DNA of 64,000 nucleotides from an uncultured Thiomicrospira sp. (GCA_965195345.1 OZ239628.1:1711553-1775552); one strand, 5' to 3'. Numbered from the stretch's first letter, positions 9,327 through 64,000 are shown. Translations and numbers: made by a program. The notes: generated by a model not told the origin, from the letters alone.

Positions 9327-9968
9327 TTATTGGGCTGATATAGGATTGAAATTTAATCGTTTTTTTAACTTAAACAAATGCTCGTATCCTTCCCCTCCTG
9401 GTACATTTTTTTCTTTATTTGAAAGGACATGTTCAACTTCAAAATATCTTTTGCATTCACTGTAAACATCTTCTGCAGTTAGGGAGAACGGAGGCGATTT
9501 TTCGCTGTTATGCTCCAATGCGATCAAAAAAACTTCTCCATTATCACGCAATAATTCAGCAATTTTTGCCAAATAATCATCCCGCATATGCTTTGGAAGT
9601 GCGATCAATGCTGCTCGATCGTACACTGCATCAAAATCATTGGCATAGGTAAAAAAGTCCGTACAGTGAACGAAAAGGTTTTGGCATCTATATACTTGTT
9701 CAGCGTTATTCTTTTGTATTTGCGCCTGTAAACCCGTTTCTGCAAAAAACGATTCTATAGCGTGTTGATTAATTTCCACTGCGTGCGTCTCAACACCAAG
9801 ATTCTTAAAAAAAACCATGCATTGCGCCTTGCCACACATTGGAACCAAAATCTTTTTAGGCTGACCCATCACTTCCTTCCAATATCTAATCAACAACGGA
9901 TGCATGCCTCCCAAATCAAAACCAATACGGTTTTCATGCCAACGACTATTCCAATATTCAATATCCAT
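9327..9968 (-). CDS. tpm: thiopurine S-methyltransferase family (SAM-dependent)
   Basis: EYWNSRWHENRIGFDLG...LVPMCGKA pattern typical of bacterial TPMT. Likely start at the internal Met (MDIEYW); the track ORF extends to 10013. Confidence 0.7.
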   Translation of the reverse strand: MDIEYWNSRWHENRIGFDLGGMHPLLIRYWKEVMGQPKKILVPMCGKAQCMVFFKNLGVETHAVEINQHAIESFFAETGLQAQIQKNNAEQVYRCQNLFVHCTDFFTYANDFDAVYDRAALIALPKHMRDDYLAKIAELLRDNGEVFLIALEHNSEKSPPFSLTAEDVYSECKRYFEVEHVLSNKEKNVPGGEGYEHLFKLKKRLNFNPISAQ

Positions 9969-11415
9969 AATCAAAAAACCGTTGCATTGTTTCCTCGCTT
10001 CCCAAAATAGCAAAATCTATACGAGCACGAGTTAATGCTGTGTATAGTAGCGAACGCATGAACAATCGTTTATCCATAGTGTCATCGACCCAAAGCCAGA
10101 CGCCATCAAACTCAGATCCTTGCGACTGATGAACAGTAAGAGCCCACGCTTGAGAAAAGTAAACAGAAGCCTCATCTATCAATATCGCTTTGTTCTCATG
10201 ATTAAAAACCACCAAAAAATCCCCTTTCTCGCTTGTGACCTTAAAGCCTTGATCGCCTTTTGAGTATTGCGAACCACTTCCTTCCAATATAATCGGCAAA
10301 ATGCCTGCTAAGGCAAAAAAACTGGACAAATGGCTGTTAATTGCCATCAATCCTTTGCTCCCTTTACGTTGAGGAGTCAGCAGGGCAAATCGTGACTGAC
10401 TATTCAATAACTCTTGCCATTTTTCTTCTTTAACTAATTCTTGCCAATTTGCAACTTTGTCTGAATAAAGTTGTTCTAAATGCTGAACTTTATTTGCTTC
10501 TCCCAAAAATAATTGAGCATGCATGTCTTCTGCTTTGAAGACTGAAAACTCATTATTGAGAACCGCTAGAGCAAGACGGTCTATTCGACTATCACCGCCA
10601 AAACGGTAACGTTGCTGTAAATACACTATATTTGCAGGCTGATACTCTTCAACCAATTGAATGACACCCCCTAATTCGACACTATCAAGCTGATTTGCAT
10701 CCCCCATCCAAACAATGTGCCGTACCCATTTGCTTGCTTTGAGTAATACAGATGCTAACTCAAGAGTGAGCATTGAAACCTCGTCCACTACTACCAAATC
10801 GTAGGGTATTGATTCAACCTTAGCATTCACGTCTGATCCAAGACCGAGAATATTATGCAATGTGCCAACAGTAATATTACTGGCGTTATTATTTTTACTA
10901 AGCGATTCTCGTAATCTTGAAGCTGCTTTGTTTGTTGGGGCGCAAAGAGCAATATCTATGTCAGATTTTTGACTGATGCAGTACTCAACTAAATGCGTTG
11001 CAATAGTTGTTTTCCCAGAACCTGGTCCTCCGCAAATAAAGTTAAATCCACTTTGTAAACTTTTCTCTATTGCTTGATTCTGCTCTTCCCCTAACGCTGG
11101 AATAGAAGTATAAGCGGTTTCTATTCTTTCATTGCAACGATCCCGCAAAAGGTTTATTATGTTTTGTTTTGCTTGCCAGAATCGACCTGGAACCAATAAA
11201 TCTTCCTCAATCACCCAAGGTGCTAAGGTTGTTTTCACTATCGGCAATCCATACAATACTTTGCGATCAATTGACGGCGGAATCTGAACACCATACGTCG
11301 AATTTTCAAGACACTCAATAAACGCATCATCAAGAAAATCAATAACCGCATCAGGAGCGTCGACTTTAAAAGACTTTAATAAATTCCGTGTTAAATGCAC
11401 TTCAATCCGAATCAA
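9958..11415 (-). CDS. SF1 RecD/Pif1-like ATP-dependent DNA helicase
   Basis: Walker A GGPGSGKTT, Walker B LVVVDEVSM, C-terminal TVHQSQGSEFD...YTALTRAR motifs of the RecD/TraA helicase family. Confidence 0.75.
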   Translation of the reverse strand: MIRIEVHLTRNLLKSFKVDAPDAVIDFLDDAFIECLENSTYGVQIPPSIDRKVLYGLPIVKTTLAPWVIEEDLLVPGRFWQAKQNIINLLRDRCNERIETAYTSIPALGEEQNQAIEKSLQSGFNFICGGPGSGKTTIATHLVEYCISQKSDIDIALCAPTNKAASRLRESLSKNNNASNITVGTLHNILGLGSDVNAKVESIPYDLVVVDEVSMLTLELASVLLKASKWVRHIVWMGDANQLDSVELGGVIQLVEEYQPANIVYLQQRYRFGGDSRIDRLALAVLNNEFSVFKAEDMHAQLFLGEANKVQHLEQLYSDKVANWQELVKEEKWQELLNSQSRFALLTPQRKGSKGLMAINSHLSSFFALAGILPIILEGSGSQYSKGDQGFKVTSEKGDFLVVFNHENKAILIDEASVYFSQAWALTVHQSQGSEFDGVWLWVDDTMDKRLFMRSLLYTALTRARIDFAILGSEETMQRFFDYGY

Positions 11416-35014: not shown

Positions 35015-37429
35015 ATGAAGACGCATGCTCGAGTAGTAGTGATCGGAGGGGGTATTGCTGGCTGTTCAACGCTCTATCATCTAACACGCGAAGGATGGAA
35101 TGATGTTGTACTGATTGAGCGCGACGAATTAACATCGGGGTCAACTTGGCATGCTGCTGCTCAAGTCACTCAGTTTGGCGCAAACCAGACAATGGTTGCC
35201 TTAAAGAGACACAGCATCAACCTTTACCGTGAGCTTGCTGCTGATTCAACTCATCCGTTTGCCTATCACATAACAGGTGGCATGCGACTTGCCCACACGC
35301 AAGAGCAGGTCGATACCTACAAACACTTTGTCAGTATGGCGAGTGGTGTGAATGTTGAGATGGAATTTATCGGCGTGGAGGAAGTCGGAAAACGCCACCC
35401 ACTTATTAATACCAAAGGTCTGATCGGAGCTTGGTGGGACCCTCTGGATGGCGACATAGACCCTGCTGGAATAACGCTCGCACTTGCTCGGAAAGCTCGC
35501 GAAGCTGGTGCCGAAGTCTATCGATTCAATCCCGTCGAAAATATCACACGCAAAGCAAATGGTGAGTTCATAGTGCATACTAAAAATGGCGACATCACTT
35601 GTGAAAAAGTGGTCAATGCTACCGGCTACCGCGTGAATGAAGTAGGTAACATGCTTGGCGTTACCCATCCAGTGACATCGATGGAACACATGTATTTTGT
35701 AACCGACACATTGCCAGAGCTTGAAGCTTTGGACTTTATGGTGCCAATTATTCGAGATCCGGGTGATGACTTTTATTCTCGCCAAGAAAAGAATGGATTG
35801 CTGGTAGGAATCTATGAACAAGGCTGTAAAACTTTTGGTATGGATGGCATTGATCCGAACTTCACCCAAGCCCTGTGCCCATCAGACCTTGATCGCTGTC
35901 TCGATAACATGGAACAAATTTTTGAACGACTCCCTGCTTTAGAAAAGGCTGGAATCCATTCTGTTATCAACGGACCTATCACCTACACGATTGATGGCGC
36001 ACCACTAATCGGGCAAATACCAGGCATTGAAAACGCCTACTGTGCGCTTGGTCTTCGAGCAGGTATTGGTGAAGCAGGTGGGCATGGCAAAATACTCGCT
36101 GAAATTATCGTTCATGGTGAGTCTGAATGGGATGCTTGGTGTTTAGACCCTCGGCGTTTTACTCAGTACGCGACAACAGAATTCACTTCCATCAAAACTA
36201 TTGAAGACTATCAAAACGAATTTCACTATCACCTTCCTCACGAACATCGACCAGCTGGACGTCCAATTCGTACAACACCGTTGTATCCACTACTCGATCA
36301 AATGGATTGCGCTTGGGGCGTCGTCAACGGTTGGGAAAGAGCACTGTTTTTCAAACCCAGTCGAGATTTTATCGATGAGCACAGCTATCGATTTACGCCA
36401 ACCAAAGACATTGTTGCCGCAGAGATTGCGCACCTTCAAAACCATGTAAGCGTGATGGAAGTTTCAGGCTTCAATCGCTATGAAATAAGCGGAGAAGGCG
36501 TAGAAGCGTTTCTAAATCATATGGTTTGTGGACATGTTCCGACAGAGATTGGCAAGCTTAGTCTTTGTTATCTATTGACTAAGAAAGGTAATGTCCTAAG
36601 TGAAGCCACGTTGGTCAAACTCGATGAGAATCTCTACTGGTGGGGTTCAGCAGCGGCATCCGAATGGCATGATCGTGATTGGTTAAATCATTTCAAACCC
36701 AAATCTGTCACTCTCACTGAACTTACAAACAGCCATACTACACTGGTTGTTGCTGGTCCCAAATCACGATCACTGCTGCAGGAAGTTTCTCCACGCTTTG
36801 ACTTTACTGGAAAATCTCTTGGATGGTTGCGTTGTCAGGCGATATGCATTGGCCACGTTGAGGTGGTTGTCATGAACGTGAGTTATTCAGGTGAGCTTTC
36901 CTATGAGTTGCATGTGCCGAACACTCAGCTAATCACTGTATGGAATACTCTCAAACAAGCTGGTAAGCAGTACAACATGGGTGCCTTTGGCCTTTACGCT
37001 ACTGAGTCGATGCGATTAGAGAAAGGTTTTCTGCATTGGAAGGCGGATCTGATTTATGAATACAATCCGTTCGAGGCAGGTCTGGATCGTTTCGTAAAAA
37101 TGGATAAATCCGATTTCATAGGCAAAGCTGCACTTATTAAGCAGGTTGAACGTGGCCCACGCAAACAGCTAGTATCACTAACTGTTGATTGCGATTTTGC
37201 CAGTGCCCATAACGGTGCTCCAGTATTTGCAGATGGTAATCTGACAGGCTCAGTTACTTCTGCTGGCTTCGGCCATCGAGTGAACAAAAATATTGCCTAC
37301 GCCTATGTTCAACCAGAACATGCTGTCACTGGAATGAAATTGCAAGTAAATATTCTTGGAGAGCGTTATGATTGCGCAGTCGTACCGCCCGCTTTGTACG
37401 ACCCGAAGTATGAGCGGATTCGAACGTGA
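35015..37429 (+). CDS. dimethylglycine/sarcosine dehydrogenase-like protein (FAD DAO domain fused to GcvT-type folate-binding domain)
   Basis: N-terminal VVVIGGGIAGCS dinucleotide fold; C-terminal roughly 400 aa aminomethyltransferase-like; 804 aa. Confidence 0.8.
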   Translation: MKTHARVVVIGGGIAGCSTLYHLTREGWNDVVLIERDELTSGSTWHAAAQVTQFGANQTMVALKRHSINLYRELAADSTHPFAYHITGGMRLAHTQEQVDTYKHFVSMASGVNVEMEFIGVEEVGKRHPLINTKGLIGAWWDPLDGDIDPAGITLALARKAREAGAEVYRFNPVENITRKANGEFIVHTKNGDITCEKVVNATGYRVNEVGNMLGVTHPVTSMEHMYFVTDTLPELEALDFMVPIIRDPGDDFYSRQEKNGLLVGIYEQGCKTFGMDGIDPNFTQALCPSDLDRCLDNMEQIFERLPALEKAGIHSVINGPITYTIDGAPLIGQIPGIENAYCALGLRAGIGEAGGHGKILAEIIVHGESEWDAWCLDPRRFTQYATTEFTSIKTIEDYQNEFHYHLPHEHRPAGRPIRTTPLYPLLDQMDCAWGVVNGWERALFFKPSRDFIDEHSYRFTPTKDIVAAEIAHLQNHVSVMEVSGFNRYEISGEGVEAFLNHMVCGHVPTEIGKLSLCYLLTKKGNVLSEATLVKLDENLYWWGSAAASEWHDRDWLNHFKPKSVTLTELTNSHTTLVVAGPKSRSLLQEVSPRFDFTGKSLGWLRCQAICIGHVEVVVMNVSYSGELSYELHVPNTQLITVWNTLKQAGKQYNMGAFGLYATESMRLEKGFLHWKADLIYEYNPFEAGLDRFVKMDKSDFIGKAALIKQVERGPRKQLVSLTVDCDFASAHNGAPVFADGNLTGSVTSAGFGHRVNKNIAYAYVQPEHAVTGMKLQVNILGERYDCAVVPPALYDPKYERIRT

Positions 37430-40648: not shown

Positions 40649-41098
40649 TTATTGTACATTCAAGGAATCTACGCACACTAACTCCTTTCGCATGACAATG
40701 GCACTATCAGGACACAGTACACGAAATTCTTCACATTGTTTTATGCAAACAGGGGCGTTTTCTTTTTGTATTGTTTCATAACCGAGGGCAGAAAAATACA
40801 ATTCTGCGGTATTCGTTAGCAAATACATTATTCGAACATTATTCTCTTGCGCGTGTTTTTCAATTTCTCGCACTAACTTTAATCCAATACCACGACTTCT
40901 GAAATCACTCGACACCGCCAATGAACGTAATAAAGCTTCTCTTCCAAAATTTTCCAAACCTACCAATGCACATAATGTGTCATTTTCGTAATAACCGATA
41001 AATTGACTTAAATCTAATTTTTGCAAATCTTCCGTAGGCAAATCACTGCTTGCCAATATTTGATGAACATCCTCAATAGATGGATTGAATTGAATCAT
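40649..41098 (-). CDS. GNAT family N-acetyltransferase
   Basis: acetyl-CoA binding motif RSRGIGLKLV..., 149 aa. Confidence 0.7.
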   Translation of the reverse strand: MIQFNPSIEDVHQILASSDLPTEDLQKLDLSQFIGYYENDTLCALVGLENFGREALLRSLAVSSDFRSRGIGLKLVREIEKHAQENNVRIMYLLTNTAELYFSALGYETIQKENAPVCIKQCEEFRVLCPDSAIVMRKELVCVDSLNVQ

Positions 41099-41937
41099 AT
41101 AGTGAAACGCTCTCCTGTTTCTAAAGATTGATAGATATTATAAAGCACCTTAGCACCCGCATTATCTACATTAGGGGCACCTAACCCTTCAATAACGTGT
41201 CTTTTATCGAGGGTTCTAAATTCAAAACTAAATCGCACCTTATTGGAAGTATTAGGAATTGAATCGTGTAAATGCGCAGAAGAGAACGCTAAACATTGAT
41301 CGGGTTCAATTACTACAGCAACGCCGTTTTTTGGCTCTTCAAGGCTCGATGGCGCTCCCTTGTAGTCAAGTTTTTCTCCCGCCTTAGCGGCTTTTTTCTT
41401 TTGCATGTACGTAGAAAAAGACCACGAATCAGTATCATTGGGCATGGGATTATTCCAATAATGTGGGTAAAAACGAATAGTACGGTTTGTATCAATTGGG
41501 TATATTGGCGCCCACCAATTTACCTGCGCTTGAACGTTAACTCCCCACGTGTCACGATGAGCATGTACATGATCATGCAACCAACGCTTCTCATAAAAAT
41601 TCACGGGCGGTGCAGCGCGTAAAATAATTTTATCCCAATATAAAAATGTAGAGTCAATACCCCATGACTTGAAAACTTGACGAACCGTATCTCGCTGTTC
41701 ATTCTGAATAGCTTCACGAGCCTTAACAAGTAGTGCTATGAAATGCGTATGATCAATATGATTATGAGCATCTGTTGGATGATAAGGCATAAAAACCTCT
41801 TCCAAAATGCCTGCCATTTTCTTGCGCCATTGCGCAAAAAAAGCATCTGTAGGTTGAACACAGAACAACTGTCCTGAAAAAATCTGTGGATAAAACTTTT
41901 CTTCTAACGGCGAACCAATAATTTTCAAAAAATCCAT
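41095..41937 (-). CDS. hypothetical protein, His-rich (possible metal-dependent oxygenase/hydrolase); unknown
   Basis: 280 aa; HNHIDHTH and LHDHVHAHRD His clusters; overlaps the GNAT start by 4 nt (operon). Confidence 0.4.
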   Translation of the reverse strand: MDFLKIIGSPLEEKFYPQIFSGQLFCVQPTDAFFAQWRKKMAGILEEVFMPYHPTDAHNHIDHTHFIALLVKAREAIQNEQRDTVRQVFKSWGIDSTFLYWDKIILRAAPPVNFYEKRWLHDHVHAHRDTWGVNVQAQVNWWAPIYPIDTNRTIRFYPHYWNNPMPNDTDSWSFSTYMQKKKAAKAGEKLDYKGAPSSLEEPKNGVAVVIEPDQCLAFSSAHLHDSIPNTSNKVRFSFEFRTLDKRHVIEGLGAPNVDNAGAKVLYNIYQSLETGERFTI

Positions 41938-51352: not shown

Positions 51353-52558
51353 TTATTTGATTATGTTATGCTCTGGTCCGTATGGAAATCCAGTAATATC
51401 ATAAGCACTATCAGCGGTTACAACCATAATATCGTGCTCGCGATAGCCACCTGCGCCGGGCTGACCTTCGGGAATCATAATCATTGGCTCCATAGAGACA
51501 ACCATATTCTCTTCAAGGACAGTATCTATATCTTCGCGTAGCTCAAGCAATGCCTCACGGCCATAGTAATGGGAAAGCACTCCGAAAGAATGTCCATACC
51601 CAAATGAACGATTTTTTAGCAAATCGTATTCTTCATAAATCTTATTCAACTCAAGTGCTATATCGCAACAACGCACCCCTGGTTTAATAAGTCGCATGCC
51701 TTCTTCATGCACTTTGGTATTGATTTCCCATAGTTTCAAAGACGCTTCATCGCAGTGGTCGTAAAACAACGTCCGCTCCAAAGCTACATAATAGCCAGAT
51801 GCCATTGAAAAGCAGTTAAGACTTAAGATGTCACCTTTTTGAATTTTACGCGTTGTTACTGGGTTATGCGCACCATCAGTATTTATTCCCGATTGAAACC
51901 AAGTCCAAGTATCCATTAATTCACTGTGTGGAAAACGACGCGCAATTTCGCGAACCATAGCTTGTGTTGAATGCAAAGCTACTTCATGTTCTGGCACATT
52001 TTCACCAATAGCTTCAACTAATGCTTCTGCACCAATATCACAGATATTAGCACCATTAGTAATGTAGTCAATTTCTTCAGTTGATTTGAGCATACGCATT
52101 TTCATACAACCGACCGATACATCAACAAATTCAGCTGCGGGCAATGCATCTTGCATTTTTTTGTGCCGCTCTAATGAAAGGTGATCAAATTCCAAACCAA
52201 CACGTCCTTTGACAGAAACAAGCGTTGATACCGCATAGAAAAAGCTATCTCTTTGCCAATCGGTATAAACTACATTTTCACCAAACGTCCTTCTCCAGGG
52301 TTGTCCACCGTCAATATTAGCACTGATTGAAGTTACTTTTTCTTGAGTAACAACCAATCCGTATGGGCGACCAAAAGAACAATATATGAAGTCACTATAA
52401 TAGTGAATATTATGAATTGAAGTGAAAACAATGGCATCAATACCTTCTCCTGCCATATAAGCACGCAGGTCTCTTTGGCGGCGATGGTATTCGGCGTCAC
52501 TGAATGTATGCTTAATCGTTTGTCCGTTAGGGATGTGCTTTAATCTTTCAAGTTGCAT
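51353..52558 (-). CDS. creatinase/ectoine-hydrolase(DoeA)-like M24-family amidinohydrolase
   Basis: 401 aa; creatinase N-domain plus pita-bread fold (GYGHSFG, SMEPMIM...GAGGYREHD). Confidence 0.65.
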   Translation of the reverse strand: MQLERLKHIPNGQTIKHTFSDAEYHRRQRDLRAYMAGEGIDAIVFTSIHNIHYYSDFIYCSFGRPYGLVVTQEKVTSISANIDGGQPWRRTFGENVVYTDWQRDSFFYAVSTLVSVKGRVGLEFDHLSLERHKKMQDALPAAEFVDVSVGCMKMRMLKSTEEIDYITNGANICDIGAEALVEAIGENVPEHEVALHSTQAMVREIARRFPHSELMDTWTWFQSGINTDGAHNPVTTRKIQKGDILSLNCFSMASGYYVALERTLFYDHCDEASLKLWEINTKVHEEGMRLIKPGVRCCDIALELNKIYEEYDLLKNRSFGYGHSFGVLSHYYGREALLELREDIDTVLEENMVVSMEPMIMIPEGQPGAGGYREHDIMVVTADSAYDITGFPYGPEHNIIK

Positions 52559-52566
52559 ATTCTTCC

Positions 52567-54183
52567 TTATTTCAATTGATCTCTTAGTATGAATTTCTGA
52601 ATTTTACCGGTCGCTGTTTTAGGGAGTTCCTGAAAGAGTACGTGCTTAGGCGTTTTAAATCCAGCAAGCCTTTCTCGACAAAATGCAATAATCTCATCCG
52701 CCTCAATGCTCACTCCTTCTTTCAGTTCAACAAAGGCACAAGGCACTTCTCCCCATTTTAAGTCTTTTTTTGCCACTATCGCTGCATTAGCAATCGCTGG
52801 ATGTGCATAAAGAACGGCTTCAATCTCAACGGAGGAAATATTTTCACCACCTGAAATAATTACATCTTTTAGACGATCTTGTATTTGCAAATATCCATCT
52901 TCTCGCCACATTGCCGCATCACCTGTATGAAACCACCCATCAACAAAGGCTTTAGCCGTTTCCTCAGGATTCTTGTAGTACCCTTTCATCACCGTGTTCC
53001 CTCTAATCAGCATCTCACCTTGTTGATTACTGTCTTTGGGCAGAAAAGCACCGGTTTCGTTTTCAATCAATTCCACTGCGTCAGTCATTGGAAAAGAAAT
53101 GCCTTGCCAACTTTTAATTTCAGAACGTTCATCTTCATTCAAGCCATTCCACTTATCTTTCCAAAGACAATGCGTTATGTGTCCATAGGTTTCCGTTAGC
53201 CCATAAACTTGCATTACATCAAATCCTATTTTTTCCATCTCACCCAGGATTGCAGGCGGTGGTGGCGCACCTGCGGTCATAACTTTTACCGCATGGGAAA
53301 TCGTTTTTTTCTCATTTTCAGCAGCATTAACTAATAGACCAAGAACAATAGGAGCGCCTCCAAAATGAGTAACTTGATATCGAACAACAGCATCAAAAAC
53401 AAATGCCGCACTCACTACGCGACAACAGACGATAGTACCTGCCATCATGCAAACAGTCCAAGCGTGTCCCCAACCATTACAATGGAAAAGTGGAACAGTA
53501 TATAAGTACACGGGATGCATTGGCAACTGCCAAGCAGATGCCGTTCCCATACTCATCAAATACGATCCTCTGTGATGATAGACTACTCCTTTAGGTTTGC
53601 CAGAAGTTCCTGAAGTGTAATTTAACGTCAATGCTTGCCATTCATCCTTTGGCAACGACCACTCAAAATTAATATCTCCTTTGGCGAGAGCTGTTTCGTA
53701 ATCTTCCTCTCCCTTAACAACATCAATTCCAGAGAGCGCATCATTGATAACAATAATCGGCATTGCCAAACTTTTATCCTCTATTACTTGTTTAGCCGTT
53801 GAATAAAATTGGCTATCAACAATCAATAGTTTGCAATCAGAATGTTCAAGAATATAGCCAACGGTACTGGCTTCAAGGCGAATATTGATGGTATTAAGAA
53901 CCGCCCCCAACATGGGAACACCGAAATGCACATCAATGAGCGCAGGTATATTTGGTGCAATAATTGACACAGTATCGCCCTCACCAACCCCACGCTCAGC
54001 AAGCACAGAAGCTAATGCGCAAGAGCGCTCATAAACATCTTTCCAACTGTAATTCTGTTCACCATAAACAACGGCACAATGATCGCCAAAATAATTGCTT
54101 GTGCGTTGCAAAAACGATAGCGGAGTTAGAGGCACATAGTTGGCTGTATTTTTGGGAAGAGATTCAAAATGCTTTTTCGACAT
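52567..54183 (-). CDS. AMP-forming acyl-CoA synthetase (medium/short-chain, DmdB/ACSM-like)
   Basis: AMP-binding motifs YTSGTSGKPKGV and GEMLIRG...GYY, 538 aa. Confidence 0.8.
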   Translation of the reverse strand: MSKKHFESLPKNTANYVPLTPLSFLQRTSNYFGDHCAVVYGEQNYSWKDVYERSCALASVLAERGVGEGDTVSIIAPNIPALIDVHFGVPMLGAVLNTINIRLEASTVGYILEHSDCKLLIVDSQFYSTAKQVIEDKSLAMPIIVINDALSGIDVVKGEEDYETALAKGDINFEWSLPKDEWQALTLNYTSGTSGKPKGVVYHHRGSYLMSMGTASAWQLPMHPVYLYTVPLFHCNGWGHAWTVCMMAGTIVCCRVVSAAFVFDAVVRYQVTHFGGAPIVLGLLVNAAENEKKTISHAVKVMTAGAPPPPAILGEMEKIGFDVMQVYGLTETYGHITHCLWKDKWNGLNEDERSEIKSWQGISFPMTDAVELIENETGAFLPKDSNQQGEMLIRGNTVMKGYYKNPEETAKAFVDGWFHTGDAAMWREDGYLQIQDRLKDVIISGGENISSVEIEAVLYAHPAIANAAIVAKKDLKWGEVPCAFVELKEGVSIEADEIIAFCRERLAGFKTPKHVLFQELPKTATGKIQKFILRDQLK

Positions 54184-54186
54184 GAC

Positions 54187-55299
54187 TTAGAAATTCAGTT
54201 TATGTATTGTTGCGCTAGACAGCCCGTTGGGCATTTCAACTTGCATTGTATTGCCAAGCTGCAAGTGGTTCAATCTTATCATTCCTATAGCCACATTAGA
54301 ATTGAACTGAGGAGACCACGTTGCTGATGTAATCTGTCCCACTCTTTTCCCATCTATCACTAAAGGCCACTCGCCACGACAAGCGCCGATTTCCCCGTCA
54401 ATAGCAAATCCACTAATCATTAAAGGATTTTCTTCTTTAGAACGACTACGCAATGCTTTTCCACCAACACACTGATCCAGTCCATATTCCTCGCAAAAAA
54501 CTCCCATACCGCACTCATAAGGCGTATTCGCCAAAGTCATATCATTGCCGTACGAAAGCAACCCACTTTCTATTCGCTCAATAAGGTTAGGACCACCAGC
54601 ACGAACATTGAGGTCTTGACCTGCTTCAAATAACGCATCCCACAAAGAGGCTCCATGCAAAGGGTCGTTTAAATAAATTTCAAAACCGCCCTGCTTAGAA
54701 AATCCAGAGCGAGAAATTATAAATTCGCATCCATTAAAATTGAATGATTTAAAACGAAAAAATTTTAAATCGCAAACGTTATTGCCAAAAACGCGTGCCA
54801 TTAAATCATTGGATTTAGGACCTTGCACAGCCAGTGGAAAAACATTTGGTTCATAAATTTTGACATCCATATTCCATCCAACCGCCAACCCTTTAAGCCA
54901 CAGTAGAAGATCTGAGTCAGCCGTAGAAACCCAAAATTCATTTTCCTCTATTTTTAATGCAACAGGATCATTTAACATTCCCCCATTTTCATCCACAACA
55001 GGAATATAAAAGCATCGACCCTCCGCCATCTTCTCCAGAGAGCGAGGCGTTATTTTTTGTAACAAATCATAGGCATCTTTCCCTCGAATAGCTACTTGTC
55101 TTTCGCATGACACGTCCCATATTTGAACATTTTCTTTGAGGTGGTGATAGTCAGCAACTAAACTTTCAAACACTGTAGGGAGCAGTGTATGATTGTAAAC
55201 TGTATAACCTTTAACGCCCGCCGCCGTAACTTTTGGAGTAAATGGTGTTGAACGAGTTCTGCGGGAAATACTTAATATGGCTTCAGCATTATTGCCCAT
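54187..55299 (-). CDS. GcvT-family aminomethyltransferase-like demethylase (370 aa; DmdA-like size and architecture)
   Basis: GcvT fold (ISRSGFSKQGGFEIYL core), no FAD domain; 3-nt spacing to flanking genes. Confidence 0.7.
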   Translation of the reverse strand: MGNNAEAILSISRRTRSTPFTPKVTAAGVKGYTVYNHTLLPTVFESLVADYHHLKENVQIWDVSCERQVAIRGKDAYDLLQKITPRSLEKMAEGRCFYIPVVDENGGMLNDPVALKIEENEFWVSTADSDLLLWLKGLAVGWNMDVKIYEPNVFPLAVQGPKSNDLMARVFGNNVCDLKFFRFKSFNFNGCEFIISRSGFSKQGGFEIYLNDPLHGASLWDALFEAGQDLNVRAGGPNLIERIESGLLSYGNDMTLANTPYECGMGVFCEEYGLDQCVGGKALRSRSKEENPLMISGFAIDGEIGACRGEWPLVIDGKRVGQITSATWSPQFNSNVAIGMIRLNHLQLGNTMQVEMPNGLSSATIHKLNF

Positions 55300-55302
55300 G
55301 AC

Positions 55303-56472
55303 CTATTCCCCATAACCCTTGGGGATAGTAATTGCAGGCAACTCTTGCGCCTGTTTTTGAAGAGCACGCCCGATGACTAAACGTTGTATTTCCGTACTTC
55401 CATCAACGATTTTTAACATTTGTGCCAATCGACTTAATCGATCCAATCCATAAGGTTTTAACAAACCCATCCCCCCCAAAACCTGAGTACACACATTCGC
55501 TGCATTCAACGCGGCATCAGGTACAAAAAGTTTTGCTTGTGCCGCAAGCAATGCACCCTCTTCCGTTCCAAGAGCATTCGCTGCTTTTTTATAAAGCAAA
55601 CGAGACACCTCTAAATTGGTTGCAACCTCTCCCAACATCCACTGAATACCATCTAATTTTAGGTTGGTTGATTTGAACATTTTCCGATCCCGTGCATAAC
55701 GAAGAGCGGTATTCAATGCGCTTTGCATCAATCCACAACAACCAGAAGCTATTGAAACACGTGCAATATCTATAGCCATCAATGAACCACTAAATCCTTT
55801 ACCAACTGGCAAAATAATATTTTCCTCAGGCACGCTAACATTGTTCAAATACATTTCCGATAGCGGAAGAAATTGATAAGAAGGTGTCTCATAAAGAGGA
55901 CCAAAAGAAAGCCCAGGCGTATCAAGTGGAACAGCAAACATAGCCATATCTTTATATCCAGGATCTTCACTGGTTTTCGCAACTACCAAATAAACATCGG
56001 CCTCTGTAGCAAGCGACACCCAAGCTTTGGAGCCGTTGATTGTATAACTGTCATCGGCATTTTTCGTGGCACGAGTATACATGGTTCCTGGATCGGAACC
56101 TGCTTGCGGTTCAGTCAATGCGAAATTAGCAAGTTTCTTACCCGAAGTTAGATCTTTTGCCCACTTGGATTTGAATGAGTCCGTACCAAAGCCACACACA
56201 GCGAAACTACATATATTATGCATAGACAACGCAAATGCATACGCGCCATCACCCATGCCCAATTGTTCATACACTTGAATACCATCTCCAAGAGACAGTC
56301 CTTGCCCGCCTAATTCTGGGGGACAGTACAAACCTGTTAATCCAAGAGAAGCTGCTTTATCCGAAGCTTCTCTTGGCCATTTGCCTTTTTCGTTCCAATC
56401 ATCCACATTCGGGATAACAACTTCATTGCAGTGTTTAACCGCATTCAACAAAATTTGCTCAATATTACTCAC
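55303..56472 (-). CDS. acyl-CoA dehydrogenase
   Basis: ACAD N, middle and C domains (ALTEPQAGSDPG; catalytic base region near the C-terminus). Confidence 0.85.
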   Translation of the reverse strand: MSNIEQILLNAVKHCNEVVIPNVDDWNEKGKWPREASDKAASLGLTGLYCPPELGGQGLSLGDGIQVYEQLGMGDGAYAFALSMHNICSFAVCGFGTDSFKSKWAKDLTSGKKLANFALTEPQAGSDPGTMYTRATKNADDSYTINGSKAWVSLATEADVYLVVAKTSEDPGYKDMAMFAVPLDTPGLSFGPLYETPSYQFLPLSEMYLNNVSVPEENIILPVGKGFSGSLMAIDIARVSIASGCCGLMQSALNTALRYARDRKMFKSTNLKLDGIQWMLGEVATNLEVSRLLYKKAANALGTEEGALLAAQAKLFVPDAALNAANVCTQVLGGMGLLKPYGLDRLSRLAQMLKIVDGSTEIQRLVIGRALQKQAQELPAITIPKGYGE

Positions 56473-56701
56473 TTGATTCCTTTTAATGAATTGACTAATG
56501 CATAAGAAATAGAGACTTTCCTAGTTAAGAGGATTATTTCTAAATTCTTTAAGTAAAAGATTGTAAAGGCTCTCATCTCTATTATATTAACCTAAACTCT
56601 TTTTCTTTTAAGTATCATTCAAACTTGTTTTTTCTATATGTTTATATTCAAATTGCTCAACCAGGGAAGACTTTTTTTTGAAGATCAATGTGTTTAAAGC
56701 T

Positions 56702-57763
56702 CTATTTCAAAGCATCGAATGTAGCACTTACTTTAGGAACCAATGCTCTCACTAATACCTTCATATCAAGAATACCCACCACATTATCATTTTCCTTAAC
56801 AAGATAGCAACAGGTTGTATCTCCATCTGATGCGAATATAACGCTCTCGAGTGTGTCGTTGAAATCCACATAACCTTCTATTTCATCCGCAGACGGAAGA
56901 TCACCATCAATTTTTTTCATGACAGAGCGCACACGTAACACCCGTGCCCGATTAATATCACTGACAAAATCTTCAATATACGGGTCACAGGGGTTTAAAA
57001 GAATATGTTGGGGCTCGCCTTGTTGTACCGCATGCCCATCTTTAAGAATCACTAAATGATCAGCAAGTTTTAGTGCCTCGTCCAAATCATGCGTAATGAA
57101 TATAATCGTTTTATGCAGATCTTTCTGCAACTCCAGCAACAAGTCTTGCATGTTAGTACGAATCAAGGGATCTAACGCTGAAAAAGCTTCATCCATCAGC
57201 ATAACCTCTGAATTCGAAGTTAATGCTCTCGCCAAGCCAACGCGTTGTTGCATTCCTCCAGACAGTTGATGAGGATGGTGTTGCTCAAAGCCACCTAGTC
57301 CAACTCTTTCAACCCACTTCTGTGCTTCAGCATCAGCAGATTCATCGCTTTCACCGCGCACACGAGGTGCCATACCAGCATTTTCTAATACTGTTTTATG
57401 AGGAAGAAGTGCAAATTTTTGAAACACCATAGACATATGAGATTGCCGCAAATTACGCAGTCGCTCATCATCGTAGCTCAAGACATCTTCATCATCAACA
57501 AGTATTTCTCCAGAAGTTGGCTCAATCAAACGATTAAAGTGTCGAATTAATGTGGACTTTCCTGATCCAGAAAGCCCCATAATAACGGTTATTTGTCCCG
57601 CAACGATGTCGACATTAATGTCTTGAAGACCCAACACATGCCCATGCTTTTCTAGCAAATCCGATTTACTCATTCCATCTTTGACTAAAGGCAGAACCGA
57701 TTTTGGATCTTTTCCAAAAATTTTGTACAGGTTACGAACCGAAACTTTTATTTTCTTATCCAT
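56702..57763 (-). CDS. proV: glycine betaine/proline-type ABC transporter ATP-binding protein with C-terminal CBS pair
   Basis: Walker A GLSGSGKST, signature LSGGMQQRVGLARAL, CBS-like C-terminal domain. Confidence 0.85.
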   Translation of the reverse strand: MDKKIKVSVRNLYKIFGKDPKSVLPLVKDGMSKSDLLEKHGHVLGLQDINVDIVAGQITVIMGLSGSGKSTLIRHFNRLIEPTSGEILVDDEDVLSYDDERLRNLRQSHMSMVFQKFALLPHKTVLENAGMAPRVRGESDESADAEAQKWVERVGLGGFEQHHPHQLSGGMQQRVGLARALTSNSEVMLMDEAFSALDPLIRTNMQDLLLELQKDLHKTIIFITHDLDEALKLADHLVILKDGHAVQQGEPQHILLNPCDPYIEDFVSDINRARVLRVRSVMKKIDGDLPSADEIEGYVDFNDTLESVIFASDGDTTCCYLVKENDNVVGILDMKVLVRALVPKVSATFDALK

Positions 57764-57788: not shown

Positions 57789-58826
57789 CTAATGTTGGTG
57801 AGTCTTATTCAGACGCGCCAATGATGCTTTACTGACACGATCTAAAATAACGGCCAAAAGAACGATCGCCAAACCTGAAACCAGCCCAACACCCAATTCA
57901 AGATTACGAATACCGCGTAATACAAGCACGCCCAATCCTGGAGCAGACACCAATGAAGCAATAACAACCATTGCCAGAGACATCATAATCGTTTGGTTAA
58001 CACCCGCCATAATATTAGGCAGAGCAAGGGGTATTTCTACTCCAAATAATTTTTGCCTGTCCGTCATACCAAATGCACTTGCGGCTTCAATAACATCCTT
58101 ATCCACCAAACGAATACCTAAATCAGTCAAACGCACAACAGGCACAATAGCATACAAAATTATCGCAATACCATATAACTTAGATTCTGTCACACTGAAT
58201 AGAAAAATAAGGGGAATAAGATATACAAATGGAGGCAAAGTTTGCAACATATCAAGCACAGGTATCATGCCACGTTGAAAGCGATCGCGTTTGGACATGG
58301 CTATCCCCAAAGGCACTCCTAATAAAACACTTATAATCGTACAAACAAATATCACTGATAGCGTTTGAATGGCATAAGTATAGTGATCAATAAAAGCCAT
58401 TAAACCGAAAGAAATGGCAACAAGTAATACTACCCCACTTGATTTTGACACTGCGCGCACTAACCATAAAATTAAAGGAATCATCACCCACCAAGGAATC
58501 GTGGTAAATAGGTATAACGTTCCATCAAGCATCCAACTCAATGGTTGAGTGATTGGATCCAGCACAATTTTGAGGACTTCTTTCACATCCAAAAATACAT
58601 TCTCAATGCCTGCTGTTAAATCACGTGTTTGTGGAATGGACTTACAAGATTTATATAGATTATCCAATGATGGAAAAGGAATGTCGTGCCACGGAGTATC
58701 CAGAGCTTCTTTTCCTTTAGAACGTGCGAGTAATTGCGACAAGGAGAGCAAGCTTTCACCATTATCACTGCCATCACACCAAGTGCGCAAACCCAACATA
58801 TCAAACATTTTTGTATAAAAGCTCAT
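57789..58826 (-). CDS. proW: glycine betaine/proline-type ABC transporter permease
   Basis: 345 aa permease with N-terminal extension typical of ProW; EAA loop ASAFGMTDRQKLFGVEIPLA. Confidence 0.8.
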   Translation of the reverse strand: MSFYTKMFDMLGLRTWCDGSDNGESLLSLSQLLARSKGKEALDTPWHDIPFPSLDNLYKSCKSIPQTRDLTAGIENVFLDVKEVLKIVLDPITQPLSWMLDGTLYLFTTIPWWVMIPLILWLVRAVSKSSGVVLLVAISFGLMAFIDHYTYAIQTLSVIFVCTIISVLLGVPLGIAMSKRDRFQRGMIPVLDMLQTLPPFVYLIPLIFLFSVTESKLYGIAIILYAIVPVVRLTDLGIRLVDKDVIEAASAFGMTDRQKLFGVEIPLALPNIMAGVNQTIMMSLAMVVIASLVSAPGLGVLVLRGIRNLELGVGLVSGLAIVLLAVILDRVSKASLARLNKTHQH

Positions 58827-59114: not shown

Positions 59115-59741
59115 TCAAATAGATTGACTCATCGCGAGGAAGATGCCAGCTGCCATTAAAACCGTACCACTAGCACGATTAAAAATCATCTGCCCTTTTT
59201 CCGACTGAGTTAGAAACTGAAACTGCACTCCAGATAAAGCATAAAATGATATAGTACAAAATTCGGCGACTAAAAAAGTACTTCCTAAAACAGTAAATTG
59301 CGCCGAAACGGGCTCTCCTTGAACCAAGAATTGAGGAAGTATGGCGGTGAAAATTAAAATAGCCTTAGGATTGCCAATTGCTATGAAGAATTCTTGCTGC
59401 ACCAATACCATTATTTTAGGTTTTCTTTTCATACTATTTTCAACAGTCAACTCAAGCACTTTTGCATACCACATTCGTATCCCAAGATATACCAAATAGA
59501 GTACCCCAAGCCATTTAATTATCAAAAATGCTAATTCTGAGGATGCTAATAAAGCACCTATTCCTACGGCCGTTAATACGATAAGTATAGTGAATGCAAA
59601 TAATCTACCTAAACCAGCTAACACTGCAATACCCAATCCATAGCAAACACCATTTCTTAGCGAAAGGAAATTATTCGGACCAGGAGATAAACTCATAGCA
59701 ATACAAGCAGGCAGGAACACCAGCCACTGTTCAAAGCCCAT
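59115..59741 (-). CDS. LysE/RhtB family amino-acid exporter
   Basis: 208 aa, 6 TM, MGFEQWLVFLPACIAMSLSPGPNN N-terminal signature. Confidence 0.8.
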   Translation of the reverse strand: MGFEQWLVFLPACIAMSLSPGPNNFLSLRNGVCYGLGIAVLAGLGRLFAFTILIVLTAVGIGALLASSELAFLIIKWLGVLYLVYLGIRMWYAKVLELTVENSMKRKPKIMVLVQQEFFIAIGNPKAILIFTAILPQFLVQGEPVSAQFTVLGSTFLVAEFCTISFYALSGVQFQFLTQSEKGQMIFNRASGTVLMAAGIFLAMSQSI

Positions 59742-59767: not shown

Positions 59768-60475
59768 TTAAATCAACAAGTCTTCTATATCGACTAGATC
59801 AGAAGACTCCCCAGCATCTTTCATCGAATTCTCGCTTTCAGGTACAAGCATGCGTTTTGAGAAACGACATAAACTGAGCCACTTACCCCTTTCAATCTCA
59901 ATGCCATTTGCCAAAGCAGCGTGGTATCGCTCACTAAAATCTGCATTCGACAGTAATAGACTCTTATTATCATCCCGTTCGAATTCAAAAAGAACAGAAT
60001 GCCCTTTAACACTGCTTTCAAACAAATCGAAATAAGATTGTCCAGCACAAAATCGAGCGGTTCTTTGCATTCCTTGACATATCCATTTCAAACACATATT
60101 GTCAGGAGCATTTTTTTGCAGATATGGAAGAAGGAATGGAACATCGCGCACATTAACAAGTTCAGTTTCAAATCCATTGCTCCAATTTTCCAATAAACTA
60201 AGCGCCCACACTTCTCCACCAAGAGAACAAGAAATATGATTGCAATCAATCGTTATTTTTTTCGCACTTTCATCTACAACAGTTGTGTGCAACTTCGAGG
60301 GTGACTTATCCATCAAAGAAAGAATGGTATCCATCGCATTAAAACCCAAAGCACTCAATATAGGAGCTGCACGAGCAGCACTGCGCGCATAAGCTATTTT
60401 ATAACCACTGCCATACAATGCCTTTTCGACTGCCATTTCAATTTCATTAAAAGAGATTCTCATTGAATGCACCAT
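59768..60475 (-). CDS. hypothetical protein (235 aa), acidic C-tail
   Basis: co-oriented 24 nt downstream of the 610-aa unknown. Confidence 0.4.
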   Translation of the reverse strand: MVHSMRISFNEIEMAVEKALYGSGYKIAYARSAARAAPILSALGFNAMDTILSLMDKSPSKLHTTVVDESAKKITIDCNHISCSLGGEVWALSLLENWSNGFETELVNVRDVPFLLPYLQKNAPDNMCLKWICQGMQRTARFCAGQSYFDLFESSVKGHSVLFEFERDDNKSLLLSNADFSERYHAALANGIEIERGKWLSLCRFSKRMLVPESENSMKDAGESSDLVDIEDLLI

Positions 60476-60499: not shown

Positions 60500-62212
60500 T
60501 TATGATTGCGTCAATGAATCGTCAAATGCATACAAAAACCAATCATCTACTCCATTTATCTTCCCTTGTGAATCAACAAGCGGTGCGCCCTGAAATAAAG
60601 TAATGCGCAACCATAAATCAGATTTTGGGTCATATTTAACCGCACCAAAAAAAGACAGTTTTAATCGCAACAAGTCAATTGGATAAAATGATTTGTCAAT
60701 GATGTTGTACCTTACTTCACCATAAGGATTTTGATCGTAATTCAAAACACGTTTTACAATATCACTTTGTTCAGGGCAATCCAATAAAAAACGTGATAGC
60801 GTAGCTTTCTGATTCGTTGGCATCAATAACCATTGGTTTAAGCAATCGTATAGTTTATGTACTTTGAACCCTATATCAATAGGAAGCTCTTTTTCAGAAC
60901 CTGCTTCTACTTTCCTCTTTCCCCGACGAGGCTCTTCTTTTGTTTGCGATTGATACCAAAAAAAGTAATCGGCGTTGGGTGAAGAAAAATCAACGGCTAA
61001 CACCCATGAATAGTTCTTATGTATTTTTTCGAGCAATTCCAATGCAGTAACATCGACCATATTGTTAATCGACGATTCATGCGCAGAAAGTCGCAAATAT
61101 CGATCATATTTTCCTACGACCATAGGATACAGTTCCAATAATATATTTAAAAACAATTCTTCGGTTTCTGCTCCATATTTTTGTTGTTTGATTCCTTCCC
61201 AAATGTCTGCCCAGTTGCATTGAATGGGTTCTTTCAATGCATCAATTAAAAAAGATTCGCATAATGCCAGCTCTTTTATTAGACGTTCATTTTTGCTCAT
61301 CTGCAATGCATCCGGCACCTTTATTCCTCTAAAGAAAAACTGAGCACGTTGCACTAAAGCCATACAAGCATTTTTTTCGCTCAAACCCAATTCAGCACTA
61401 TGCACAATTTCATATAAAGCTTGTTCACGCTGCTTAACCCAACAATTCACCACACTAGGATGTTTGATTAAATAAGGCATCATCCCCAAACCCGTTGAAT
61501 TGCCAATACCAACGTAGCGAGCAATTCGTTCATCTAACGCAATAGCTTCTCTATTTTGTTGCTTAGCAAGGTACTCCACCCAGTCCAATGTAAACTTACG
61601 CACCATGAAAACAAGCATCATTTGAGCAGAGAAATGCTCTGAAAAAACCCCTGACTGCAGCTGCTCATAATCTGCCATGCCAAATTTCCCATTTCCATAA
61701 ACAGCCGTTGTACGAACTAAATAGCCAATCTTTTTCAACTCCTCAATACTAGGTGACTGGCCACTTGCTAGACTATCAATGACGTGTTGGAAAATACGTA
61801 CACTTTTATTGGCACGGGATATACTCAGCACTTTAGGAGAATATCGACCTCTTTCTTGTAGAGGCAGCTGCTTTGCTAATTGTGCAATATCACTTTCTTG
61901 CAATTGTCCTTGCCACAAACAACAAGTCATATCCCATGCTTCAGCAATAACACGATCATTGCGTAACGATGAATCAAGCGCTTGTGTGAAAAACAGCGCT
62001 TGGTATATTCCCTCATGCGTATGTATTTTGTAAGTAACATAACCCAATCCTTCAGAATCAAGCCGCCATTGATCCGGTTGTATTTCCCATGCTTTAGCAA
62101 TCATAACCCGTATCAATTTACGAGAAAAACTCATACAAGATGGATGAAATGAACCCAAGCGATCTGGATGCATCAATGATTCTGGAAATCTTAAGCACGG
62201 AAAATCAATCAT
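60500..62212 (-). CDS. hypothetical large protein (about 570-610 aa), unknown function
   Basis: The track ORF extends to 62332 and would overlap the dipeptidase by 82 nt. An internal Met (MIDFP..., 62212, or MHPDRL, 62173) is a more likely start. Confidence 0.45.
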   Translation of the reverse strand: MIDFPCLRFPESLMHPDRLGSFHPSCMSFSRKLIRVMIAKAWEIQPDQWRLDSEGLGYVTYKIHTHEGIYQALFFTQALDSSLRNDRVIAEAWDMTCCLWQGQLQESDIAQLAKQLPLQERGRYSPKVLSISRANKSVRIFQHVIDSLASGQSPSIEELKKIGYLVRTTAVYGNGKFGMADYEQLQSGVFSEHFSAQMMLVFMVRKFTLDWVEYLAKQQNREAIALDERIARYVGIGNSTGLGMMPYLIKHPSVVNCWVKQREQALYEIVHSAELGLSEKNACMALVQRAQFFFRGIKVPDALQMSKNERLIKELALCESFLIDALKEPIQCNWADIWEGIKQQKYGAETEELFLNILLELYPMVVGKYDRYLRLSAHESSINNMVDVTALELLEKIHKNYSWVLAVDFSSPNADYFFWYQSQTKEEPRRGKRKVEAGSEKELPIDIGFKVHKLYDCLNQWLLMPTNQKATLSRFLLDCPEQSDIVKRVLNYDQNPYGEVRYNIIDKSFYPIDLLRLKLSFFGAVKYDPKSDLWLRITLFQGAPLVDSQGKINGVDDWFLYAFDDSLTQS

Positions 62213-62250: not shown

Positions 62251-63237
62251 TTATTCGCCACTTGGTCGCAATGCCTTTGAGAAATAGCGCAACCAATTCT
62301 CTCCCAATACTTTTGCAATATCTGCATCGCAAAAACCACTAAGTCGCATCGCAGGAGCAAGCTGTGCGAAATCACTCACTCTTCGAAACCAAGAAGGCTG
62401 TTTGGGCCAAACGTTTTGCTTATTAACATCTTCTCCATAATCCGCTTCTCTCGTCCAATGTCCATTACGCATGTATTCCAATGCTTCAATCGGTCTACCT
62501 TGACAAATATCACTGCCTATTCCAATATTCTCGAGTCCAACCATATCTCCCAATCGTTTCAGCTCATCCATGAGTTCATCCATCGTGCAATCGGATGTGT
62601 TTTTTAAATGAAATGGATAAAAACTTAATCCAAACATACCGCCCGATTCTACTAATTTCTTAATCAAATCATCCGACTTATTTCGCACTGCTTTTTTGAA
62701 TGTCAAACTGTGCGCATGAGTAATTGATATAGGTCGAGATGAATGCTCTATTGCCTCATAGGTCGATCGCTCAGAGCTATGCGACATATCAATCACCATA
62801 CCAACACGATTCATTTCAGCAATAGCAGCACGCCCAAAACGACTAAGCCCCGTATCTTCCATCTCATAACAACCACAACACAAATGCGACAAATTGTTAT
62901 AAGACAATTGCATAACGCCAACATTTAAGCGGCGATAAATTTGCAACATGTCAATATTATTCTCAATGGAAGAGCAATTTTGAAAACCAAATAAAATCCC
63001 AACACGTCCATCTTGCTTCATTTCCAAACCTTCTAATGAACAGGCAGAATAGAGCAAATCGGAATTTTGTTCAATAAACCGAAACCAATCACCTATGAAT
63101 GTTATGGTTTCGTGGATATTCTCCCAAAAAACTACTGTGACATGCACCATGTCCAATCCCGCTTGCTGTGCTTCCTCAAAATAAATTCGAGTTGGCTTTG
63201 GATACTGCAATGCATCAATATATATTGTTTTGTTCAT
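62251..63237 (-). CDS. membrane-dipeptidase (renal dipeptidase, M19) family zinc peptidase
   Basis: TIM-barrel M19 motifs (HVTVVFWEN..., MVIDMSH, GIGSDICQG), 328 aa. Confidence 0.75.
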   Translation of the reverse strand: MNKTIYIDALQYPKPTRIYFEEAQQAGLDMVHVTVVFWENIHETITFIGDWFRFIEQNSDLLYSACSLEGLEMKQDGRVGILFGFQNCSSIENNIDMLQIYRRLNVGVMQLSYNNLSHLCCGCYEMEDTGLSRFGRAAIAEMNRVGMVIDMSHSSERSTYEAIEHSSRPISITHAHSLTFKKAVRNKSDDLIKKLVESGGMFGLSFYPFHLKNTSDCTMDELMDELKRLGDMVGLENIGIGSDICQGRPIEALEYMRNGHWTREADYGEDVNKQNVWPKQPSWFRRVSDFAQLAPAMRLSGFCDADIAKVLGENWLRYFSKALRPSGE

Positions 63238-63902: not shown

Positions 63903-64000
63903 ATGTGTGGCATTTTTGGTTGGATTGACAACAGAATTACGTTGCAACACGCGGAACGGATGGTTCACGCCTTGCGGCATCGCGGACCTAATGACAACGG
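63903..64000 (+). CDS. asnB: asparagine synthase (glutamine-hydrolysing)-like, N-terminal fragment running off the window
   Basis: MCGIFGWIDN... class-II glutamine amidotransferase N-terminus with catalytic Cys2. Confidence 0.65.
   Translation, partial: MCGIFGWIDNRITLQHAERMVHALRHRGPNDN

Follow-up and report, generated by a model that had tools for sequence, protein, structure and literature searches.

Demethylation is the main bacterial sink for dimethylsulfoniopropionate (DMSP), which ranks among the most abundant organosulfur compounds in the ocean. In the pathway described for Ruegeria pomeroyi, R. lacuscaerulensis and Pelagibacter ubique, the substrate is demethylated by DmdA, the product is activated as a coenzyme A (CoA) ester by DmdB and desaturated by DmdC, and DmdD or AcuH catalyzes the final step. 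The dmd operon of SAR92 has the order dmdA-acuH-dmdB-dmdC (PMC10746254). The operon on pPGA1_262 of Phaeobacter inhibens DSM 17395 (RefSeq) codes for an acyl-CoA dehydrogenase (ACAD, 586 aa), the methylthioacryloyl-CoA hydratase DmdD, an AMP-binding protein and a DMSP demethylase, and pMaD9 of Marinovum algicola carries dmdR followed by dmdE-dmdF-ligase-dmdA-acuI-SBP56. Here we describe a related locus in a 64,000-nucleotide stretch of DNA (the window) from an uncultured Thiomicrospira sp. (GCA_965195345.1 OZ239628.1:1711553-1775552). Four adjacent genes between positions 51,353 and 56,472 code for an ACAD, a GcvT-family protein, an AMP-forming ligase and an M24-family protein. They most likely specify a variant DMSP demethylation set plus a creatine-splitting enzyme, in other words two separate nutrient-harvesting modules that are transcribed together, and not one new pathway. 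We give a probability of roughly 0.6 to the view that the four genes form one transcription unit joining two independent catabolic entry modules. Unlike this locus, the operons of P. inhibens, M. algicola and SAR92 contain a long DmdC-type ACAD or none, include dmdD/acuH or acuI, follow a different gene order and are devoid of a creatinase gene.

An earlier note on this DNA had described a four-gene operon with spacings of 3, 3 and 8 nucleotides (nt); the coordinates proved exact and the Pfam domains fit the labels given (Table 1). The ACAD/DmdA and DmdA/ligase junctions read TAG-GTC-ATG and TAA-GTC-ATG, and the ligase and creatinase genes are joined by TAA-GGAAGAAT-ATG. A sister strain (locus L105) contains four called genes in identical order with 98.6-98.7% nucleotide identity (blastn). 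Because this strain keeps the arrangement, and because at least six lineages share the ACAD-DmdA(-ligase) core, we can eliminate the possibility of a chance pattern of open reading frames (ORFs). At third codon positions, the four genes have a GC content of 0.32-0.34, the same as the housekeeping genes in the window and the genome background, and therefore none of them looks like a recent foreign insert. Recent horizontal transfer of the creatinase gene was considered as well and ruled out on this compositional ground. Scans of the region from 50.8 to 59.2 kb returned promoter-like matches at chance level and terminator-like matches at about twice the expectation; since the latter fall mostly inside genes, they were set aside. 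Rfam models detected no riboswitch or other RNA, either in the whole window at gathering score or between 51 and 64 kb at E<=1.

By equivalog-level homology the 370-aa GcvT-family protein is identified as DmdA, a predicted tetrahydrofolate (THF)-dependent DMSP demethylase. It scores 527 bits on the NCBIfam DMSP demethylase equivalog NF009133 (cut-off 410), while the GcvT models of the same collection reach at most 164 bits and remain under their cut-offs. The closest relative of solved structure is DmdA from P. ubique (3tfh: 1e-99, 337 bits, 45% identity), far ahead of the best GcvT match in the PDB (6e-32, 114 bits). The protein also has the expected fold, with a folate-binding domain and a C-terminal barrel in a stand-alone chain. 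Its nearest database relatives, self excluded, are 58-62% identical proteins from Ruegeria, Maricaulaceae and Hyphomonadaceae that carry the NCBI name DMSP demethylase, and the closest of them adjoin soxBDAG sarcosine oxidase genes. An aromatic residue, W171, has been reported as a DMSP-specific contact in DmdA (PMC7487153), and we equated it with W197 of 3tfh by residue spacing. This position is occupied by Phe200 in the window protein, by Tyr in the Ruegeria proteins and by Trp in Pelagibacter and in two of the other lineages discussed below (L008 and L015). Since Trp, Tyr and Phe all occur among proteins that pass the DmdA model, the contact position does not discriminate.

The order ACAD-DmdA-ligase is common to the window, the sister strain and the lineages L001/L002, L003/L016 and L103/L104. 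Locus L015 has the order ACAD-ligase-DmdA, and L008 has ACAD-DmdA only. Outside the sister strain, the DmdA proteins of these lineages share 52-56% identity with that of the window, and the three tested on NF009133 (L001, L008 and L015) all pass. The position after the ligase gene is empty in these lineages, or filled by an unrelated gene or by a gene resembling methylenetetrahydrofolate reductase (MTHFR; L003/L016); in none of the other triad-bearing lineages sampled did we find a creatinase.

The 538-aa ligase is probably a 3-methylmercaptopropionate (MMPA)-CoA ligase, as suggested by conserved synteny that extends to Roseobacter dmd operons. It passes the NCBIfam model PRK08162 with 804 bits (cut-off 677). 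The AMP-binding protein encoded in the P. inhibens operon is 53% identical to it over the full length and behaves likewise on the models (PRK08162, 774 bits; PRK07008, 314 bits), and the ligase of the M. algicola cluster is 51% identical. A ligase of this type adjoins dmdA in the window, in L001-3, L015, L016 and L103-5, and in P. inhibens and M. algicola. Because it is found in this position in two Roseobacters as well as in gammaproteobacterial lineages, we consider the PRK08162 type to be a dmdA-linked ligase. Alignment with the crystallized DmdB of R. lacuscaerulensis (6ihk), to which it is 31.5% identical, shows that H231, W235, R432, K434, D435, K523 and K526 are kept, including the catalytic lysine of ANL enzymes and the His/Trp acyl pocket.

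The ACAD is probably an MMPA-CoA dehydrogenase, an analog and not an ortholog of DmdC, a proposal that draws on synteny alone. This protein matches no NCBIfam equivalog, and it shares just 24% identity with the long (586-aa) ACAD encoded among the P. inhibens dmd genes. Its orthogroup, which we call Asp-type for a residue discussed below, is unusually conserved, with 72-80% identity between gammaproteobacterial metagenome-assembled genomes and many Rhodobacteraceae. Members also occur in settings other than the triad. In L018/L019 the ACAD gene is followed by a DinB-family gene and a gene for an AcuI-family acryloyl-CoA reductase (TIGR02823, 454 bits vs 297), and in L006 by acuI. The DmdR regulon of Roseobacters comprises dinB-dmdA-acuI (PMC12992908). 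In Cognatiyoonia, Aestuariivita and Marivita (L004, L005 and L009), a solitary Asp-type ACAD lies beside an AraC-family regulator that is 61-68% identical to the AraC protein encoded next to the P. inhibens dmd operon (L106 16425-17444), which suggests a shared family of MMPA- or DMSP-responsive regulators. Three independent gene contexts (dmdA, acuI/dinB and the dmd-type AraC gene) thus tie this orthogroup to DMSP catabolism by gene neighborhood. We also observed a dimethylglycine dehydrogenase (DMGDH)-like gene directly 5' of an Asp-type ACAD in L020.

These contexts bear on the possibility that the ligase and the ACAD serve the general metabolism of short- or medium-chain fatty acids and stand beside dmdA by chance, so that only DmdA would be related to DMSP. 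Both proteins have generic family names, and the best PDB matches of the ACAD are isobutyryl- and butyryl-CoA dehydrogenases (~190 bits). Orthologs of both occur away from dmdA, and the characterized DmdB and DmdC are themselves fatty-acid enzymes of broad specificity (PMC5395565). However, the adjacency has been kept while DmdA diverged to 52-56% identity, including one rearranged order, and the ACAD is also tied to acuI/dinB and to the dmd-type AraC regulator. With the 3-nt spacers as a further point against chance, we regard this explanation as improbable.

Several observations weigh against the reading of the locus as a DMSP demethylation set transcribed together with a creatinase. The identity of the window DmdA to characterized enzymes, 45% for Pelagibacter and about 58-60% for the Ruegeria type, is high and yet not proof of the substrate. 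The ligase and DmdB fall into different ANL subfamilies, and the ligase fails the DmdB equivalog (PRK07008/NF005426, 3-(methylthio)propionyl-CoA ligase) with 314 bits against a cut-off of 822. Four of the eight checked residues that contact substrate or AMP in DmdB, with roles taken from PMC6850173, differ in the ligase (G302T, G303A, W326Y and P333G). Canonical DmdC is a four-domain protein of ~593 aa that is ACDH-11-like, with a C-terminal alpha-domain 3 and Glu435 as the base (PMC6850173). The window ACAD, with 389 aa and three Pfam ACAD domains, does not have this architecture. Where the Y-E-G motif would have its catalytic Glu, each of the 120 orthogroup members examined has Asp (D357, IVDG[ST]TE). 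In HMMER alignments with isobutyryl- and butyryl-CoA dehydrogenases, D357 pairs with their catalytic Glu, and the alternative base position in helix G is occupied by Ala. Since dehydrogenases usually carry Glu at this position, the chemistry or the substrate of the ACAD could differ. The classic enzyme of ACAD fold with an Asp base is nitroalkane oxidase (Asp402). A literature search for natural ACADs with an Asp base was unproductive. Furthermore, no enoyl-CoA or methylthioacryloyl-CoA hydratase (DmdD/AcuH) is encoded within the 64-kb window, in which respect the locus also departs from the described pathway, and no gene for a substrate-binding protein adjoins the ProVW importer genes in the window or in the sister strain. 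Finally, the one pointer to co-transcription of the creatinase gene is the 8-nt spacing.

Part of this evidence would fit a triad that acts on another methyl donor of the sulfonium or betaine type, such as a host- or alga-derived analog of DMSP, with the resulting acid then being CoA-activated and desaturated. The invariant Asp of the ACAD would then reflect the substrate, and the altered contact residues of the ligase, the Phe in place of the Trp of Pelagibacter or the Tyr of Ruegeria, and the location of the island amid uncharacterized genes for osmolyte catabolism could be read in the same way. On the other hand, DmdA passes a model of equivalog level, and the aromatic contact varies among proteins that all pass it. 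In Roseobacter operons, the same type of ligase is accompanied by annotated dmdD, dmdEF, acuI and an SBP56 protein of the methanethiol oxidase type, a context specific for DMSP. We therefore consider another donor unlikely, and favor DMSP as the substrate of the triad. Of the dmdCAB-like logic proposed in the earlier note, the assignment of the GcvT-family protein to the DmdA clade has held, and the ligase and the ACAD are confirmed as conserved partners of dmdA; neither is orthologous to characterized DmdB or DmdC. The homology comparisons that the note had suggested divide along the same line, with the 370-aa protein grouping with DmdA, and with a ligase outside the DmdB model and an ACAD that has neither the architecture nor the Glu of DmdC. 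The best matches of the three proteins are not all ordinary glycine-cleavage or fatty-acid enzymes.

The fourth gene is identified by homology as a true creatinase (creatine amidinohydrolase, EC 3.5.3.3). The 401-aa protein aligns over its full length with crystallized creatinases (1chm, 7e-183; 7yto, 2e-172; 1kp0, 3e-159) and is 66% identical to the enzyme from Pseudomonas putida (1chm). It shares Creatinase_N and M24 domains and the catalytic and binding residues with the creatinases of P. putida, Alcaligenes and Actinobacillus. At the five positions which we take to form the active site of the P. putida enzyme (Arg64, His232, Glu262, Arg335 and Glu358), the alignment shows identical residues (R64, H231, E261, R334 and E357). 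The fold is also common to the DMSP lyase DddP and the ectoine hydrolase DoeA, and DddP in particular would suit a DMSP context. Nevertheless, no DddP chain occurs among the 45 PDB sequences matched by the 401-aa protein at E<=1e-3, and DoeA is matched at 1.7e-7 as compared to 7e-183 for creatinase. On the NCBIfam models for DoeA the protein reaches 72 and 59 bits, about one tenth of the cut-offs (575 and 613). A DddP- or DoeA-like function is hardly credible on these grounds. Hence, the creatinase half of the earlier label "creatinase/ectoine-hydrolase-type" stands and the ectoine hydrolase half falls.

Among 80 metagenome loci with creatinases that are 66-76% identical to that of the window, none contains the ACAD-DmdA-ligase triad, and in many of them an ABC transporter or a GcvT-family (sarcosine-oxidizing) gene lies nearby. 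The window creatinase lies instead within a dmd operon. Because the triad occurs without the creatinase in all other lineages sampled, and the creatinase without the triad in each of the 80 loci, we conclude that the two modules are independent; the creatinase is a lineage-specific addition to the triad. A literature search for creatinase together with dmdA in symbionts found nothing usable. These distributions also speak against a linear pathway in which all four enzymes process a single methylated amidino compound, an idea for which the tight spacing, 8 nt between ligase and creatinase, is the sole argument. The fourth position in other triad lineages is vacant or taken by another gene, such as the MTHFR-like one, and the creatinase shares both its active site and 66% identity with creatine-specific enzymes. 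Nor would a CoA ligase and an ACAD have any chemically sensible use for sarcosine or urea. A single pathway is thus very unlikely, and the suggestion in the earlier note that the operon may serve one different methylated or amidino compound is not sustained.

Taken together, we propose the following roles for these proteins. Based on homology, DmdA would transfer a methyl group from DMSP to THF to form MMPA and 5-methyl-THF. The PRK08162-type ligase would convert MMPA to MMPA-CoA, as its synteny suggests, and the Asp357 ACAD, placed here by synteny only, would oxidize MMPA-CoA to methylthioacryloyl-CoA as a non-orthologous replacement of DmdC. The final DmdD/AcuH hydratase step would depend on an enzyme encoded outside the window. 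Given its identity to known creatinases and its conserved active site, the creatinase would split creatine into sarcosine and urea. Sarcosine may then be oxidized by an enzyme of the DMGDH/sarcosine dehydrogenase (SARDH) family, and 5-methyl-THF by the MTHFR-like enzyme, so that both modules would supply the THF one-carbon pool. A role of ProVW in uptake is conjectural. As a unit, the island would harvest methyl groups, sulfur and nitrogen from imported osmolyte-type compounds.

Candidates for the accessory steps are encoded in the vicinity (Table 1). In the sister strain, one strand carries genes for an M19 dipeptidase, a 570-aa unknown protein, a DUF3726 protein, LysE, ProW, ProV, ACAD, DmdA, ligase, creatinase, an MTHFR-like protein, a 426-aa DmdA paralog, a 280-aa unknown protein and a GNAT protein. 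This order is ancestral, with the unit of MTHFR-like, paralog and 280-aa genes directly 3' of the creatinase gene. Copies of a 10-bp direct repeat, TCGATGAATT, border the strain-specific insertion in the window on either side (44402-44411 and 51300-51309). The insertion contains four tandem paralogs of 221-222 aa and an ORF of 1014 aa. The paralogs are 73-77% identical to the first copy, and the middle two are nearly identical to each other. The genes of the insertion have no Pfam or PHROG match, and no transposase or integrase was recognizable among ORFs called at >=100 aa.

Table 1. Position and annotation of the four-gene unit and of surrounding features in the window.
Feature	Coordinates	Strand	Remarks
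ACAD gene	56472..55303	minus	389 aa; GTG start preceded by AAGGA
GcvT-family gene (DmdA)	55299..54187	minus	370 aa; PF01571 + PF08669 (Pfam)
AMP-forming ligase gene	54183..52567	minus	538 aa; PF00501 + PF13193 (Pfam)
M24/creatinase gene	52558..51353	minus	401 aa; PF01321 + PF00557 (Pfam)
AT-rich gap, 229 nt	56473..56701	minus	5' of the ACAD gene, up to the proV-like gene; candidate promoter region of the four-gene unit
ProV-like ATPase	57763..56702	minus	betaine/choline-type ABC importer (Pfam, NCBIfam)
ProW-like permease	58826..57789	minus	betaine/choline-type ABC importer (Pfam, NCBIfam)
LysE/RhtB-family exporter	59115..59741	minus	Pfam, NCBIfam
DUF3726 protein	60475..59768	minus	Pfam
Unknown 570-aa protein	62212..60500	minus	
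M19 "dipeptidase"	63237..62251	minus	Pfam
Strain-specific insertion, 6888 bp	44412..51299	plus	genes 44825-51005; missing from the sister strain L105 (blastn); splits the creatinase gene from the MTHFR-like gene
MTHFR-like gene	44186..43377	minus	269 aa; PF02219 39 bits; TIGR00676 53 bits (cut-off 294)
DmdA paralog (GcvT)	43307..42027	minus	426 aa; DmdA model 292 bits (cut-off 410); 34% identity to DmdA
Unknown 280-aa gene	41937..41095	minus	
DMGDH/SARDH-family flavoenzyme	35015..37429	plus	804 aa; Pfam DAO+FAO_M+GCV_T; PDB DMGDH 5l46 521 bits

In L003/L016, the fourth position of the operon, after ACAD, DmdA and ligase, is taken by a homolog of the MTHFR-like protein (37% identity), which is compatible with a role in recycling the 5-methyl-THF that DmdA produces. 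The 426-aa DmdA paralog probably represents a second demethylase dependent on THF, paired with a cofactor-recycling enzyme of its own. A similar pairing exists in the ligM-metF-ligH clusters of Sphingobium sp. SYK-6, in which a THF-dependent O-demethylase of the GcvT family is combined with an MTHFR. There, a producer of 5-methyl-THF stands beside a recycling enzyme of the MTHFR family, an arrangement matched by the ligase and MTHFR-like genes of L003/L016 and by the MTHFR-like and 426-aa GcvT genes of the window. The methyl donors in SYK-6 are aryl methyl ethers instead of a sulfonium, and the window MTHFR-like protein is short and divergent. For sarcosine made by the creatinase, the 804-aa flavoenzyme encoded 14 kb away is the candidate consumer, judged by its family. 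A 52% identical homolog is encoded immediately upstream of the dmdR-dmdEF-ligase-dmdA-acuI cluster on pMaD9 of M. algicola (L111 2630-5065), which thereby shares with the window this neighbor in addition to a PRK08162 ligase adjoining dmdA.

On the other side of the operon, the genes for the M19, 570-aa and DUF3726 proteins also occur together in the metagenome locus L076, P. inhibens (two copies), Pseudomonas sp. MPC6, S. meliloti pSymB and Vibrio. A transporter, of the BCCT or ABC type, is always present with them, and aldehyde dehydrogenases and regulators of the LysR/IclR types are further companions. This trio is a conserved, uncharacterized three-gene catabolic module of Alpha- and Gammaproteobacteria. 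One of the P. inhibens copies abuts the dmd operon, so that pPGA1_262 resembles the window in this module as well as in its PRK08162 ligase next to dmdA, and in L076 the trio is located 2.4 kb upstream of a creatinase gene, with two genes in between. The 570-aa protein has about 1000 representative relatives, and some of these, 790-940 aa long, seem to be fused to the DUF3726 partner. An AlphaFold2 model built on an alignment of 59 sequences has a pLDDT of 93 (35 in a single-sequence run) and no structural neighbor in the PDB. The unknown proteins have no match in PHROGs, and our literature search returned no mention of DUF3726.

Three further genes lie elsewhere in the window. At 16714-19149 (plus strand), an 811-aa protein has a SIR2_2 domain and, after it, a STAND NTPase domain, as is typical of proteins for defense against phages. 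A gene of the thiopurine S-methyltransferase (TPMT) family, which may be relevant to the methylation of thiols or methanethiol in an organism that degrades DMSP, is located at 9327-10013 (minus strand). An asparagine-synthase-like gene (GATase + Asn_synthase), divergent from the M19 gene, starts at ~63903-64000 (plus strand) and runs off the end of the window, as judged from the sister strain (L105 664-2568).

The first enzyme and the logic of the pathway are known, and the novelty of this locus lies in the predicted roles of the ligase subfamily, the Asp-base ACAD, the attached creatinase and the genes for one-carbon recycling. For ligase and ACAD, novelty is measured against curated models, 6ihk and the described DmdC; the characterized isozymes SPO0677, SPO0298, SPO2915, SAR11_0248/0249 and R. 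pomeroyi DmdB1, DmdC2 and DmdC3 lie outside this comparison. Tentatively, and with more doubt than confidence, we suggest that the Asp357 ACAD and the PRK08162 ligase may constitute a distinct, widespread and unrecognized MMPA branch (DmdB'/DmdC') that is missed by marker-gene surveys, and that the M19-570-aa-DUF3726 module may add a further step to the catabolism of DMSP-related compounds or other osmolytes.

In environmental surveys, dmdA, dmdB and dmdC are counted on the basis of their homology with the enzymes from Ruegeria and Pelagibacter. If the PRK08162 ligase and the Asp-type ACAD do catalyze the MMPA steps, such surveys would under-count complete pathways. According to a preprint, dmdB is mainly absent from gammaproteobacterial symbionts (10.64898/2025.12.05.692484), and a DmdB'/DmdC' branch, if true, could explain those that have dmdA and are devoid of dmdB. 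That an ACAD orthogroup of such high conservation has Asp instead of Glu at the position of the catalytic base is an oddity of enzymology that lends itself to testing. Finally, the presence of a creatinase gene in the operon and of an island of 14 genes around it suggests that a gammaproteobacterium with a small genome (~1.9 Mb) may use DMSP and creatine in a coordinated way as sources of methyl groups, sulfur and nitrogen.

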